Source of the DNA: a virus | Lineage: Duplodnaviria > Heunggongvirae > Uroviricota > Caudoviricetes | IMG/VR virus record: IMGVR_UViG_2698536418_000006 | Coordinates: 1-5,572 of that record | Reading direction: 5' to 3' (one strand) | Length of the DNA: 5,572 nt | Shown here: positions 1-5,572 of the stretch, in pieces | Position numbering within the stretch: position 1 is the stretch's first letter | Layout: the number at the start of each line of letters is the position of its first letter | Notes under the pieces: model-generated | What the model saw: the letters and a program-made list of their open reading frames with translations, nothing else | The model's database searches: none | Told to the model about the DNA's origin: nothing | Program-made: the position numbers and the translations under genes

Positions 1-1
1 C

Positions 2-382
2 CGGAAACTGGTAAAGGAACGGTCCAGACTGAAACGGGCCACGGTCAGAAATCCGAATGCCAGAATTATCGTTAACCGCGGTGATCTCCCGGTGATTAAG
101 CTGGGGATCAGGATGCCGGGGCGTCGTCCGGACAGCATACTCAAAGCCGGTCAGCATCGTTATCAGCGGGCATTTATTCAGCGATTAAAAAATGGTCGCT
201 GGCATGTCATGCAGCGTGTGGCCGGGAAAAACCGTTACCCCATTGATGTGGTGAAAATCCCGATGGCGGCCCCACTGAAACAGGCGTTTGATGAGAATGT
301 TGACCGTATCCGGCGTGAACGCCTGCCCGGAGAACTGGCATATGCGCTGAAACAACAACTGAGGATTGCGATAAAACGATGA
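2..382 (+). CDS. Z: Minor tail / tail completion protein Z, 5' partial (runs off the window start)
   Basis: Frame 2 is open from nt 2 with no stop; the track ORF at 92 begins at an internal GTG. The stop TGA 380-382 overlaps the U start (ATGA). Its position immediately upstream of U matches the lambda order; I do not recall the Z sequence itself as well as the others. Confidence 0.8.
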   Translation, partial: RKLVKERSRLKRATVRNPNARIIVNRGDLPVIKLGIRMPGRRPDSILKAGQHRYQRAFIQRLKNGRWHVMQRVAGKNRYPIDVVKIPMAAPLKQAFDENVDRIRRERLPGELAYALKQQLRIAIKR

Positions 383-774
383 AACATACTGATATCCGTG
401 CTGCAGTGCTGGATGCACTGGAGCTGCATGAACACGGGGCGACGCTGTTTGATGGTCGCCCCGTTGTTTTTGACGAAGAGGATTTTCCCGCGGTCGCGGT
501 TTATCTGACGGATGCAGAGTATACCGGTGAAGAGCTGGATGCGGATACCTGGCGGGCCACACTGCATATTGAAGTTTTCCTGCCTGCTCAGGTGCCGGAT
601 TCAGAGCTGGATTCGTGGATGGAGTCCCGGATTTATCCGGCGATGTCCGCGATCCCTGCACTGGCAGGGATGATTACCACGATGGTTCAGCAGGGCTATG
701 ACTATCGTCGTGATGACGATATGGCGTTATGGAGCTCTGCAGATTTGACTTATTCCATTACATACGAGATGTGA
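379..774 (+). CDS. U: Tail terminator (tail tube-terminating) protein U, 131 aa
   Basis: 131-aa ORF, the same length as lambda gpU, with near-identical blocks as I recall them ([79 protein letters not shown]). ATG overlaps the Z stop. Confidence 0.95.
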
Positions 775-781
775 GGACGAT

Positions 782-1534
782 ATGCCAACACCAAATCCCC
801 TGGCGCCGGTAAAAGGTGCCGGTACCACTCTGTGGGTTTACACCGGCAAGGGTGATGCTTATGCAAACCCGTTGTCAGATGATGACTGGCAGCGACTGGC
901 TAAGGTGAAGGATCTGACGCCGGGCGAGATGACGGCAGAATCCTACGATGATAACTACCTGGATGATGAAGACGCGGACTGGAGCGCGACCGGGCAGGGA
1001 CAGAAATCTGCAGGTGATACCAGTTTTACACTGGCCTGGAAACCGGGAGAAGAAGGTCAGAAAGGGCTTATAGGCTGGTTTGAAAGCGGGGATGTGCGGG
1101 CCTATAAAATCCGTTTTCCGAATGGCACGGTGGATGTGTTTCGTGGCTGGATCAGCAGTATCGGTAAGGCAGTGACGGCGAAAGAAGTGATCACCCGAAC
1201 AGTGAAAGTGACCAACGTGGGCAAACCTTCCGTGGCGGAAGAACGCAGCGAAATTACGCCGGCCACTGCAATTAAGGTGACACCGACATCCGGTACCGTG
1301 GAAAAAGGAAAAACAACCACCCTGACTGTTTCTTTTGAGCCGGAAAGTGCAACCGACAAGACGTTCAGAGCGGTTTCCGCCGATCCGTCGAAAGCCACCA
1401 TTAGTGTGAAAGATATGACAATTACGGTAAACGGCGTGGCGACAGGTAAGGTGCAGATCCCTGTGGTGAGCGGAAATGGTCAGTTCGCCGCAGTGGCTGA
1501 AGTCACCGTTACTGAAGCGGGCGCTGCAGGGTAA
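782..1534 (+). CDS. V: Major tail tube protein V, 250 aa
   Basis: Lambda gpV-like sequence and position. GAGGA at 771-775 lies 6 nt upstream of ATG 782. The C-terminal third is T/V/S-rich and beta-strand-like, consistent with the Ig-like domain of gpV. Confidence 0.95.
1253..1516 (+). other. V: C-terminal Ig-like (Big_2-type) domain of the major tail protein V, about residues 158-245
   Basis: The segment [87 protein letters not shown] has the alternating hydrophobic/T/S pattern of bacterial Ig-like domains; lambda gpV is known to carry one at its C-terminus. Boundaries are approximate. Confidence 0.7.
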
Positions 1535-1536
1535 AC

Positions 1537-1541
1537 GGAGG
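1537..1541 (+). promoter_or_regulatory. Shine-Dalgarno (GGAGG) for G, 6 nt upstream of ATG 1548
   Basis: Direct read of the sequence acGGAGGtaatacATG. Confidence 0.75.
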
Positions 1542-1547
1542 TAATAC

Positions 1548-1979
1548 ATGTTTCTGAAAACAGAACAATTTGAATATAACGGTGTGTCCGTCACGCTTTC
1601 CGAGCTGTCTGCGCTGCAGCGTATTGAGCATCTTGCCCTCCTGAAACGGCGTGCAGAACAGGCAGAATCCAGCGGCAACCTGCAGGTAAGCGTGGAAGAT
1701 CTCGTCAGAACCGGCGCGTTTCTGGTGGCGATGTCCCTGTGGCATAACCATCCGCAGAAAACGGCATCACCGTCAATGAATGAGGCTGTGATGCAGATCG
1801 AACAGGAGGTGCTCACCACCTGGCCTGCGGATGCCATTGCCCGGGCGGAAGATGTGGTGTTGCGTCTGTCCGGGATGAGCGGGGCTGTTCATGCGGATAC
1901 TGACAGCACCGAAGTGGCGAAAAATAACGCACTGACTGATGATGATTTTTCTGCGGGAAAGTCTTCGACGGCGAGCTGA
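1548..1979 (+). CDS. G: Tail assembly chaperone G, 143 aa
   Basis: Lambda gpG-like sequence (MFLKTE.FE.NGV.VTLSELSALQRIEHLAL.KR.AEQAES, RTGAFLVAMSLWHNHPQKT, SMNEAV.QIEQEVLTTWP, ending SAGK.ST.S). The slippery heptamer sits 6 codons before the stop TGA 1977-1979. Confidence 0.93.
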   Translation: MFLKTEQFEYNGVSVTLSELSALQRIEHLALLKRRAEQAESSGNLQVSVEDLVRTGAFLVAMSLWHNHPQKTASPSMNEAVMQIEQEVLTTWPADAIARAEDVVLRLSGMSGAVHADTDSTEVAKNNALTDDDFSAGKSSTAS

Positions 1980-2419
1980 ATTTTGCCCTCAGACTGGCGC
2001 GTGAGATGGGGAGGCCTGACTGGCGCGCCATGCTTGCCGGGATGACATCCACCGAATATGCCGACTGGCGACATTTTTACCGTACGCATTATTTTCACGA
2101 TACCCAACTGGATATGCATTTTTCCGGGCTGACGTACGCCGTACTCAGCCTGTTTTTTTGCGATCCGGATATGCATCCCTCTGATTTCAGTCTGCTTGCC
2201 CCCCGGCGTGAGGAAGCGCAGACGGAGATGCCGGATGAGGAAAAAATGCTGATGCAGAAAGCGGCAGGACTTGCCGGAGGCGTACGGTTTGGTGGGGACG
2301 GAGGGCGTGAGATTTTATCGTCTGCGGATGTGGCGGATGTCAGCGAGGATGATGTCGCATTAATGATGGCTTCAGCGGGGATTCCGGGAGGTGTGAGATA
2401 TGTCCCAGCCGGTTGGTGA
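1548..2419 (+). CDS. T: Tail assembly chaperone G-T fusion made by the -1 frameshift at 1955-1961 (G frame 1548..1961 joined to the -1 frame 1961..2419); about 290 aa
   Basis: After the slip the -1 frame reads VFDGELNFALRLAREMGRPDWRAMLAGMTSTEYADW...GGVRFG...GGVRY, matching lambda gpT as I recall it. T has no independent start near the slip. Its stop TGA 2417-2419 overlaps the H start by 20 nt. Confidence 0.9.
1955..1961 (+). promoter_or_regulatory. Programmed -1 ribosomal frameshift slippery heptamer G GGA AAG (X XXY YYZ)
   Basis: GGGAAAG at 1955-1961 is phased in the G frame as G|GGA|AAG. The -1 frame opens at 1946 (after TGA 1943-1945) and runs to 2419. This is the same heptamer and arrangement as the lambda G/GT frameshift. 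Confidence 0.9.
2387..2391 (+). promoter_or_regulatory. Shine-Dalgarno (GGAGG) for H, 8 nt upstream of ATG 2400, inside the 3' end of T
   Basis: Direct read of the sequence ccgGGAGGtgtgagatATG. Confidence 0.7.
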
Positions 2420-4289
2420 TCTTGTTATTGACCTGAGTCTGGATGCGGTCCGTTTCGATGAGCAGATGAGCCGGGTAAGGCGTCATTTTTCCGGACTGGA
2501 GACTGACGCCAGAAAAACCGCCGGTGTCGTTGAGCAGAACCTGAGTCGTCAGGCGCTGGCTGCACAAAAAGCCGGGATTTCCGTCGGGCAGTATAAAGCG
2601 GCCATGCGAACCCTGCCCGCACAGTTTACGGATATCGCCACGCAGCTTGCCGGTGGTCAGAATCCCTGGCTGATCCTGCTGCAACAGGGCGGTCAGGTGA
2701 AGGACTCCTTCGGCGGGATGATCCCCATGTTCAGGGGACTTGCCGGTGCGATCACCCTGCCGATGGTGGGGGCCACCTCGCTGGCGGTGGCGACCGGTGC
2801 GCTGGCGTATGCCTGGTATCAGGGCAACTCAACCCTGTCCGATTTCAACAAAACGCTGGTCCTTTCCGGCAATCAGGCGGGACTGACGGCAGATCGTATT
2901 CTGGCCCTGTCCAGAGCCGGGCAGGCGGCAGGGCTGACGTTTAACCAGACCAGCGAGTCACTGACGGCGCTGGTGAATGCCGGTGTGCGTGGTGGTGAGC
3001 AGTTTGAGGCGATCAGCCAGAGTGTGGCGCGTTTCTCCTCTGCATCCGGCGTGGAGGTGGACAAGGTCGCTGAAGCCTTCGGGAAGCTGACCACAGACCC
3101 GACGTCGGGACTGACAGCGATGGCACGTCAGTTCCATAACGTGACGGCGGAGCAGATTGCGTATGTTGCTCAGTTGCAGCGTTCCGGAGATGAAGCCGGG
3201 GCATTGCAGGCGGCGAACGAGGCCGCAACGAAAGGGTTTGATGACCAGACCCGCCGCCTGAAAGAGAACATGGGCACGCTGGAGACCTGGGCAGACAGGA
3301 CTGCGCGGGCATTCAAATCCATGTGGGATGCGGTGCTGGATATCGGTCGTCCTGATACCGCGCAGGAGATGCTGATTAAGGCAGAGGCTGCGTTTAAGAA
3401 AGCAGACGACATCTGGAATCTGCGCAAGGATGATTATTTTGTTAACGATGAAGCGCGGGCGCGTTACTGGGATGATCGTGAAAAGGCCCGTCTTGCGCTT
3501 GAAGCCGCCCGAAAGAAGGCTGAGCAGCAGACTCAACAGGACAAAAATGCGCAGCAGCAGAGCGATACCGAAGCGTCACGGCTGAAATATACCGAAGAGG
3601 CGCAGAAGGCTTACGAACGGCTGCAGACGCCGCTGGAGAAATATACCGCCCGTCAGGAAGAACTGAACAAGGCACTGAAAGACGGGAAAATCCTGCAGGC
3701 GGATTACAACACGCTGATGGCGGCGGCGAAAAAGGATTATGAAGCGACGCTGAAAAAGCCGAAACAGTCCGGCGTGAAGGTGTCTGCGGGCGATCGTCAG
3801 GAAGACAGTGCTCATGCTGCCCTGCTGACGCTTCAGGCAGAACTCCGGACGCTGGAGAAGCATGCCGGAGCAAATGAGAAAATCAGCCAGCAGCGCCGGG
3901 ATTTGTGGAAGGCGGAGAGTCAGTTCGCGGTACTGGAGGAGGCGGCGCAACGTCGCCAGCTGTCTGCACAGGAGAAATCCCTGCTGGCGCATAAAGATGA
4001 GACGCTGGAGTACAAACGCCAGCTGGCTGCACTTGGCGACAAGGTTACGTATCAGGAGCGCCTGAACGCGCTGGCGCAGCAGGCGGATAAATTCGCACAG
4101 CAGCAACGGGCAAAACGGGCCGCCATTGATGCGAAAAGCCGGGGGCTGACTGACCGGCAGGCAGAACGGGAAGCCACGGAACAGCGCCTGAAGGAACAGT
4201 ATGGCGATAATCCGCTGGCGCTGAATAACGTCATGTCAGAGCAGAAAAAGACCTGGGCGGCTGAAGACCAGCTTCGCGGGAATGGCTGA
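2400..4289 (+). CDS. H: Tail tape measure protein H, 629 aa as encoded; C-terminally truncated by an out-of-frame duplication junction at 4282/4283
   Basis: N-terminus (M..PVGDLV.DLSLDA.RFDEQM.RVRRHFSG), a hydrophobic segment (GGMIPMFRGLAGAITLPMVGATSLAVATGALAYAWY) and a long K/E/Q/A-rich helical region match lambda gpH. The ORF ends ...AAEDQLRGNG* at TGA 4287-4289, where lambda H continues for about 225 more residues in my recollection. Confidence 0.92.
   Translation: MSQPVGDLVIDLSLDAVRFDEQMSRVRRHFSGLETDARKTAGVVEQNLSRQALAAQKAGISVGQYKAAMRTLPAQFTDIATQLAGGQNPWLILLQQGGQVKDSFGGMIPMFRGLAGAITLPMVGATSLAVATGALAYAWYQGNSTLSDFNKTLVLSGNQAGLTADRILALSRAGQAAGLTFNQTSESLTALVNAGVRGGEQFEAISQSVARFSSASGVEVDKVAEAFGKLTTDPTSGLTAMARQFHNVTAEQIAYVAQLQRSGDEAGALQAANEAATKGFDDQTRRLKENMGTLETWADRTARAFKSMWDAVLDIGRPDTAQEMLIKAEAAFKKADDIWNLRKDDYFVNDEARARYWDDREKARLALEAARKKAEQQTQQDKNAQQQSDTEASRLKYTEEAQKAYERLQTPLEKYTARQEELNKALKDGKILQADYNTLMAAAKKDYEATLKKPKQSGVKVSAGDRQEDSAHAALLTLQAELRTLEKHAGANEKISQQRRDLWKAESQFAVLEEAAQRRQLSAQEKSLLAHKDETLEYKRQLAALGDKVTYQERLNALAQQADKFAQQQRAKRAAIDAKSRGLTDRQAEREATEQRLKEQYGDNPLALNNVMSEQKKTWAAEDQLRGNG
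2667..4282. repeat. Tandem direct repeat, copy 1 (complete 1616-bp unit covering H codons 90-628)
   Basis: 2667..3956 aligns base-for-base with 4283..5572 at a constant 1616-nt offset, with no indels at any point I checked. Confidence 0.95.
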
Positions 4290-5572
4290 TCCTGCTGCAA
4301 CAGGGGGGGCAGGTGAAGGACTCCTTCGGCGGGATGATCCCCATGTTCAGGGGGCTTGCCGGTGCGATCACCCTGCCGATGGTGGGGGCCACCTCGCTGG
4401 CGGTGGCGACCGGTGCGCTGGCGTATGCCTGGTATCAGGGCAACTCAACCCTGTCCGATTTCAACAAAACGCTGGTCCTTTCCGGCAATCAGGCGGGACT
4501 GACGGCAGATCGTATGCTGGTCCTGTCCAGAGCCGGGCAGGCGGCAGGGCTGACGTTTAACCAGACCAGCGAGTCACTCAGCGCACTGGTTAAGGCGGGG
4601 GTAAGCGGTGAGGCTCAGATTGCGTCCATCAGCCAGAGTGTGGCGCGTTTCTCCTCTGCATCCGGCGTGGAGGTGGACAAGGTCGCTGAAGCCTTCGGGA
4701 AGCTGACCACAGACCCGACGTCGGGACTGACAGCGATGGCACGTCAGTTCCATAACGTGACGGCGGAGCAGATTGCGTATGTTGCTCAGTTGCAGCGTTC
4801 CGGAGATGAAGCCGGGGCATTGCAGGCGGCGAACGAGGCCGCAACGAAAGGGTTTGATGACCAGACCCGCCGCCTGAAAGAGAACATGGGCACGCTGGAA
4901 ACCTGGGCAGACAGGACAGCACGGGCATTCAAATCCATGTGGGATGCGGTGCTGGATATTGGTCGTCCTGATACCGCGCAGGAGATGCTGATTAAGGCAG
5001 AGGCCGCGTTTAAGAAAGCGGACGATATCTGGAATCTGCGCAAGGATGATTATTTTGTTAACGATGAAGCGCGGGCGCGTTACTGGGATGATCGTGAAAA
5101 GGCCCGTCTTGCGCTTGAAGCCGCCCGAAAGAAGGCTGAGCAGCAGACTCAACAGGACAAAAATGCGCAGCAGCAGAGCGATACCGAAGCGTCACGGCTG
5201 AAATATACCGAAGAGGCGCAGAAGGCTTACGAACGCCTGCAGACGCCGCTGGAGAAATATACCGCCCGTCAGGAAGAACTGAATAAGGCACTGAAAGACG
5301 GGAAAATCCTGCAGGCAGATTACAACACGCTGATGGCGGCGGCGAAAAAGGATTATGAAGCGACGCTGAAAAAGCCGAAACAGTCCGGCGTGAAGGTGTC
5401 TGCGGGCGATCGTCAGGAAGACAGTGCTCATGCTGCCCTGCTGACGCTTCAGGCTGCACTCCGGACGCTGGAGAGGCATGCCGGAGCAAATGAGAAAATC
5501 AGCCAGCAGCGCCGGGATTTGTGGAAGGCGGAGAGTCAGTTCGCGGTACTGGAGGAGGCGGCGCAACGTCGC
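4283..5572. repeat. Tandem direct repeat, copy 2 (first 1290 bp visible; continues beyond the window)
   Basis: Repeats tggctgatcctgctgcaacag...gcggcgcaacgtcgc of copy 1 with scattered substitutions and one divergent patch. Confidence 0.95.
4283..5572 (+). pseudogene. H: Second copy of the tape measure coding sequence (H residues 90 to about 519), open in frame 2 to the window edge with no in-window stop; out of frame with upstream H. Either a disrupted H remnant or an N-terminally truncated H if expressed from an internal start.
   Basis: Frame 2 translates as WLILLQQGGQVKDSFGGMIPMFRGLAGAITLPMVGATSLAV... through ...QFAVLEEAAQRR with no stop from 4265 to 5572. The first in-frame candidate starts are GTG 4313 and ATG 4334. 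It is absent from the ORF track only because it has no stop in the window. Confidence 0.55.

Follow-up and report, generated by a model that had tools for sequence, protein, structure and literature searches.

We showed that the tape measure gene H in the window, which is the whole 5,572-nt stretch of DNA analysed here, carries a large head-to-tail repeat that breaks the gene instead of lengthening it. As written, the sequence encodes a 629-aa fragment of H without the C-terminal domain, whatever the origin of the join. The repeat is most likely not a biological feature, and we put at about 60% the probability that it reflects the mis-joining of paralogous H genes from lambdoid prophages. An assembly artefact, which the sequence-only reading had itself named as the alternative, is a more likely explanation than a lengthened tape measure. 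If the repeat is real, it would be a rearrangement of an ordinary kind that turned H of a defective prophage into a pseudogene.

The tail module and the repeat within H

The genes Z, U, V, G, T and H in the window form the tail module of a lambda-like E. coli prophage (Table 1). The closest genome is that of E. coli O111:H2 strain 12A, whose prophage (L001) is identical to the window over positions 1-3283 and collinear with it over 1-4281; the identity to phage lambda itself is about 88%. The 12A genes are annotated in RefSeq as tail protein, U, tail protein, chaperone G, T and an 853-aa tape measure protein. The counterpart of Z is annotated there as phage tail protein, and Pfam Minor_tail_Z matches Z in relatives. 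A -1 slippery site (GGGAAAG) was found at 1955-1961, and the G-T fusion is open after the -1 shift. H follows directly downstream of G and T in the position of a tape measure gene, its start at 2400 being overlapped by the end of T at 2419. The sequence-only reading had named the repeated gene a lambda-type tape measure H, which was borne out by TMP_2 matches in both copies and by the RefSeq annotation of the identical 12A gene.

A direct-repeat search of the window returned two copies 1616 nt apart, one starting at 2667 and the other at 4283, position 2667 being the first base of H codon 90 counted from the ORF start at 2400. By base-by-base comparison, 2667-3956 and 4283-5572 were aligned without gaps over 1290 nt with 37 mismatches (97.1%), and to the left of 2667 and 4283 the homology ended sharply. 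The alignment of copy 2 reaches the window end (5572), which agrees with the earlier statement that a block from H codon 90 reappears at 4283 and runs colinearly to that end. The paired minus-strand ORFs had also been taken for a side-effect of the repeat, correctly: all four pairs (192, 99, 85 and 143 aa) lie at an offset of 1616 and are by-products of it. A repeat of this length cannot have arisen by chance. Tandem Repeats Finder has a longest period of 500, so a 1616-nt unit is invisible to it. The window stops before the 3' end of copy 2.

Table 1. Positions of the tail genes, the repeat copies and the junction in the window (^ marks the breakpoint).
Feature	Position	Strand	Basis
Tail gene Z, 3' part (Minor_tail_Z family)	1..382	+	Identical to 12A prophage (L001 4001-4382)
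Tail terminator gene U	379..774	+	ORF; L001 annotation phage minor tail U family protein
Major tail tube gene V	782..1534	+	ORF; Phage_TTP_12 and Big_2 in relatives
Tape measure chaperone genes G (1548-1979) and T (2006-2419)	1548..2419	+	ORFs, 12A annotation, slippery site
Truncated H frame: codons 1-627, then Asn-Gly and stop; 629 aa	2400..4289	+	ORF, translation
Repeat unit, copy 1 (H codons 90-628)	2667..4282	+	Base-by-base and allele comparison
Hypervariable patch dividing the allele types	2963..3011	+	19 nt differences, 8 aa changes
Blunt out-of-register junction ...CGCGGGAA^TGGCTGATCC...	4282..4283		Comparison with parental-type alleles
Repeat copy 2 (H codons 90-519, ended by the window edge)	4283..5572	+	Comparison and TMP_2 match
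TGA closing the H frame, five bases past the junction	4287..4289	+	ORF list, translation

The H reading frame

The 1616-nt head-to-tail repeat reported inside H is present, but its unit is not a multiple of three in length (1616 = 3 x 538 + 2), and the repeat is therefore out of frame. The ORF is not continuous across the junction: the H frame ends with ...DQLRGNG before the TGA, and the product has 629 aa versus 853 aa in 12A. The N-terminal domain is retained in this product, PF06791 (TMP_2) matching residues 54-256 with 237 bits. Tape_meas_lam_C was not detected by Pfam in the 629-aa product and was found in the 853- and 859-aa relatives. The TMP_2 match of copy 2 starts at profile position 38, thus the repeat breaks inside this domain and away from a domain boundary. 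Copy 2 lies in a frame different from that of copy 1 and, read in the H frame, has no stop in any of its 430 visible codons; the nearest upstream stop in this frame is at 4262, and the first in-frame starts are GTG at 4313 and ATG at 4334 (equal to Met107).

With an out-of-frame offset of 1616 and a stop after the junction, the sequence as written gives no longer ruler. The idea of a longer tape measure and an altered tail length, raised by the sequence-only reading, was consequently not supported: the repeat is out of frame, the TGA at 4287-4289 closes the frame, and the copies are different alleles. Two ways around the stop were also considered and rejected. A programmed -1 frameshift at the junction does not fit, as CGC GGG AAT does not follow the slippery pattern X XXY YYZ. 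A restart at ATG 4282 would be in the wrong frame, giving a 92-aa ORF without Pfam match.

Allele structure, junction and search for a second occurrence

The ORF pairs of the repeat had been called near-identical, a description that does not hold for the copies throughout, since 19 of the 37 differences are crowded into the hypervariable patch (4579-4627 in copy 2). Differences fall in 32 codons, 20 of them synonymous, and 10 of the 12 amino-acid changes belong to one patch at codons 167-204. Every base that varies between the copies agrees with a known natural allele, and does so in blocks. Copy 1 is of the 12A type to about 3188 and of the STEC 2011C-4251 type over 3284-4282, the segment 3200-4282 being 100% identical to many STEC genomes. 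Copy 2 is of type B (as in strains C311 and W284) over 4283-4627 and then of the 12A type. Copies of a single origin should be identical or randomly diverged; the 37 differences instead stand in natural-allele blocks. Since the variants are mostly synonymous and all match natural alleles, two pre-existing alleles were joined and no fresh duplication took place.

The identical stretch 3012-3283 was then used as the point at which the halves of the two copies were exchanged in silico. Swapped X' had 2 mismatches to 12A, and swapped Y' had 566 complete-genome records at an identity of at least 99%, with a best of 99.6%. The actual copies had only 13 and 19 records at 99% or above, with best values of 99.1% and 99.5%, respectively, so that the exchange brought the sequences much nearer to common natural alleles. 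Judged by these comparisons, the two copies have the appearance of mosaics built reciprocally from two common allele types, with an apparent switch of phase between the types across identical stretches.

Across the breakpoint, alleles of the left parental type have ...CGCGGGAA^CTGGATGG (...GGGAA^CTGGATGG) and the right parental type reads ...AAAGTCCG^TGGCTGATCC (...GTCCG^TGGCTG), and the window has the out-of-frame form GGGAATGGCTG / GGGAATGG. Compared with these parental-type alleles, 0 nt of microhomology is shared at 4282/4283, and the join therefore lacks the mark of slippage or of a microhomology-mediated event. BLAST extension as far as query position 206 had pointed to a microhomology of 7 nt, which was discarded as alignment noise because the real alleles read CTGGATGG. 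No Ns or other scar were found at the junction in the window, and an IS- or integrase-mediated event was rejected because no inserted sequence is present there.

Both flanks of the breakpoint adjoin variable sites. In a panel of 76 unique H alleles, 4282, where the left side ends, is a balanced SNP with G in 42 and A in 34, and 2666, directly before the right side, is a common SNP with C in 23 and G in 53, after which 23 bases do not vary. Sites as polymorphic as these two make up only 9.4% of H, which gives a joint chance of about 1% for the SNP adjacency of both flanks, or a few per cent allowing for the post hoc choice. The breakpoints thus occupy positions where repeat copies differ, as a mis-join predicts. 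Contig or graph boundaries are expected at variable positions, while biological breakpoints have no reason for such placement.

An independent occurrence of the junction was searched for with a 400-nt probe, which was compared by BLAST with 5,426 complete E. coli genomes, phage records and plasmids. The probe met 11,698 H places in 3,711 of the 5,426 complete genomes, always with its halves separate; phage records and plasmids likewise had only separate halves, and the junction was not found in any of the three sets. W284 and CD09, listed with full probe coverage, simply carry a shorter H of 612 aa. Contig collections were searched with an exact 38-mer and with a degenerate version allowing A/G and one extra base. 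Neither pattern matched anything in IMG/VR or among GTDB representatives. The JGI metagenomes contained no match to the exact pattern and, for the degenerate one, a single unrelated chance 24-mer match in a soil-type contig. By exact look-up, the 629-aa product was not found in a 153-billion-gene index. 12A has a single copy of H. The identical T protein occurred in 10 contexts, in all of which H was either not called or present as one copy of 853 or 859 aa. An IMG/VR relative (L016) reported as 100% identical had 15 nucleotide mismatches and a normal H. In all collections searched, the junction was thus not reproduced in independent assemblies, again as a mis-join predicts.

Origin of the join and comparison with known systems

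After H codon 628, the sequence of the window returns to codon 90 of a different H allele. In the explanation that we prefer, one strain would carry several near-identical lambdoid prophage tape measure genes, two of which would have been joined in assembly, in scaffolding or by abutting contigs. We infer that this join was made outside the cell, by software or on a chimeric template. H-type sequence is found in a complete E. coli genome at 3 places in the median and at 11 at most, a classic setting for repeat-driven mis-joins. A mis-join is supported by a junction that is blunt, out of frame, placed beside variable sites, formed between two natural alleles and found nowhere else in the collections searched. 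As the junction lacks shared k-mers, a pure de Bruijn path could not have created it; a chimeric template, a scaffolder or a contig concatenation would be required, and this need for an additional step counts against a mis-join. The unscarred join and the intact frame of copy 2 over 430 codons speak against it as well, as do the rare natural mosaics that exist near each copy (99.1-99.5%). The SNP-adjacency argument is post hoc, and a private mutation would likewise be absent from other genomes.

The main rival is a real event, which we regard as possible but less likely than a mis-join. It would be an illegitimate, out-of-register recombination from H codon 628 to codon 90 of another prophage or phage, by deletion between tandem or neighbouring prophages or by exchange between a phage and a prophage, with H inactivated. 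The outcome would be a hybrid prophage with the 629-aa fragment and an out-of-frame remainder, tail-defective unless another prophage complements it. Distinct natural alleles as copies are what the joining of two elements is expected to give, the junction k-mers must stem from some molecule, and strains with many H-bearing prophages are able to recombine. A disrupted H is moreover common in STEC prophages, for example in 2011C-4251, where H is annotated as frameshifted and in two pieces. However, kilobases of 97% identity should favour in-register homologous exchange. Illegitimate joins in E. coli usually show microhomology, which is missing here, and E. coli is not known to possess classical end joining. 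The position of both flanks next to common SNP sites, the resemblance of the copies to reciprocal chimeras and the lack of a second occurrence in any collection searched also argue against a real illegitimate join.

A real in-frame duplication of 539 codons, assembled from two alleles and hidden by the loss of one junction base through sequencing error, appears very improbable. The left parental allele runs on as ...GGGAACTGG and the right starts with TGGCTG, so the junction is a single missing C away from an in-frame microhomology junction. Once the parental C is put back (GGGAAC^TGG^CTGATCC), the repeat has an offset of 1617 nt and a 3-nt TGG microhomology, and H would have 1392 aa; the open H frame of copy 2 over every visible codon also speaks for this reading. 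The TGG coincidence is not significant, since in a simulation 14% of random H breakpoint pairs gained at least 3 nt of microhomology after a 1-nt shift, and two thirds of all random junctions need only a one-base change to be in frame. The lost C would lie outside any homopolymer, the copies are different alleles, and no other example was found in any collection searched; natural variation in H length was seen as a 612-aa form, which is in frame, and as an 859-aa form. Tail length changes in proportion when a tape measure gene has in-frame duplications or deletions, by about 0.15 nm per residue according to PMC5099701, which cites Katsura and Hendrix 1984, and the 539 extra residues would make the tail about 80 nm longer if this reading were true.

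If true, a natural, expressed 1.6-kb tape measure duplication would put the protein-ruler rule for tail length to the test in nature. Such a duplication finds no support in the sequence, as the repeat breaks H without lengthening it. Engineered in-frame duplications and deletions have been described for lambda H (Katsura and Hendrix 1984) and for the lactococcal TP901-1 TMP (PMC5099701), and the engineered duplications share with the window an internal head-to-tail repeat in the gene that sets tail length. They are, however, in frame, with identical copies, one longer protein and a longer tail, whereas the 1616-nt unit of the window is out of frame, with a stop just past the junction and copies of different alleles.

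The mis-join that we favour most resembles the repeat-induced chimeric joins of draft assemblies and concatenated pseudo-molecules. Common to both are a multi-copy gene, a switch of allele type over stretches that are identical, a blunt junction that ignores the frame and sits at variant positions, and the lack of independent occurrence, although the putative mis-join of the window has no Ns at the join. Large internal repeats in multi-copy prophage genes thus need checks of frame, allele identity and read support before they are interpreted.

Decayed H genes of defective lambdoid prophages in STEC and EPEC (for example 2011C-4251 C6P70_RS30670 and RS29695, annotated as frameshifted) are likewise interrupted lambda-type H in multi-lysogenic E. 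coli, and the 2011C-4251 allele family matches copy 1 in its 3' part at 100% identity. These genes have small deletions or frameshifts in many genomes, whereas the window has a 1.6-kb out-of-register repeat seen once. The natural H length variants, of 612 aa in W284 and CD09 and of 859 aa beside the same T protein, are a length polymorphism of the same gene family; they keep the reading frame and both terminal domains, unlike H in the window.

The G–T frameshift site and small features within H

The coordinates of the features found in the tail module are collected in the table. In the reading frames of the window, a −1 shift at GGGAAAG leads from G into T and yields a G–T fusion protein without interruption.

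Features of the G, T and H region (window positions)
Feature	Position	Position in second H copy	Remarks
G ORF	1548-1979		
−1 frameshift site GGGAAAG	1955-1961		canonical lambda-type, close to the G 3' end
T	2006-2419		
Hypervariable patch, H	2963-3011	4579-4627	
20-nt near-palindrome CAGACCCGACGTCGGGACTG, within H	3094-3113	4710-4729	
21-nt tandem repeat, H	3812-3853 (counterpart)	5428-5469	weak, 2 copies, 80% matches (Tandem Repeats Finder)

The near-palindrome owes its listing as an inverted repeat solely to the presence of the H block in two copies. Between copy 1 and copy 2, the hypervariable patch carries 19 nucleotide differences in 49 nt, resulting in 8 amino-acid changes in codons 189-204, and this patch, which is bordered on both sides by long identical stretches, tells two H allele types apart.

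Disrupted H genes in other genomes

Window positions 3200-4282 were 100% identical to the H allele family of E. coli 2011C-4251. The annotation of 2011C-4251 (NZ_CP027388; locus L004, 3781-6261) gives H as a pseudogene that is frameshifted and split into two parts; directly 3' of codon 98, this H has a net loss of about 80 nt.

For phages PhiR70_1 (PV340577; locus L096, 3704-6264) and PhiR49_1, the deposited genomes are labelled complete and the host is given as E. coli C or ECOR13; in both, H carries two annotated features, with CDS lengths of 90 and 747 aa. PhiR70_1 H lacks one nucleotide about 19 nt upstream of codon 90, which shifts its frame; the first CDS terminates at the TGGCTGA stop that the window H also uses, and the second starts at Met107, the counterpart of the window ATG at 4334. 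This annotation points either to a sequencing error or to tolerance of an N-terminal split by H.

Length variants of H

In E. coli W284 (NZ_CP162987; locus L002, 2234-4072), the tape measure gene encodes 612 aa versus 853 aa, a natural in-frame variant with about 241 codons fewer, and strain CD09 has the same short form. A tail built with this 612-aa H is predicted to be markedly shorter. An H of 859 aa was found in several genomes whose T protein is identical to that of the window.
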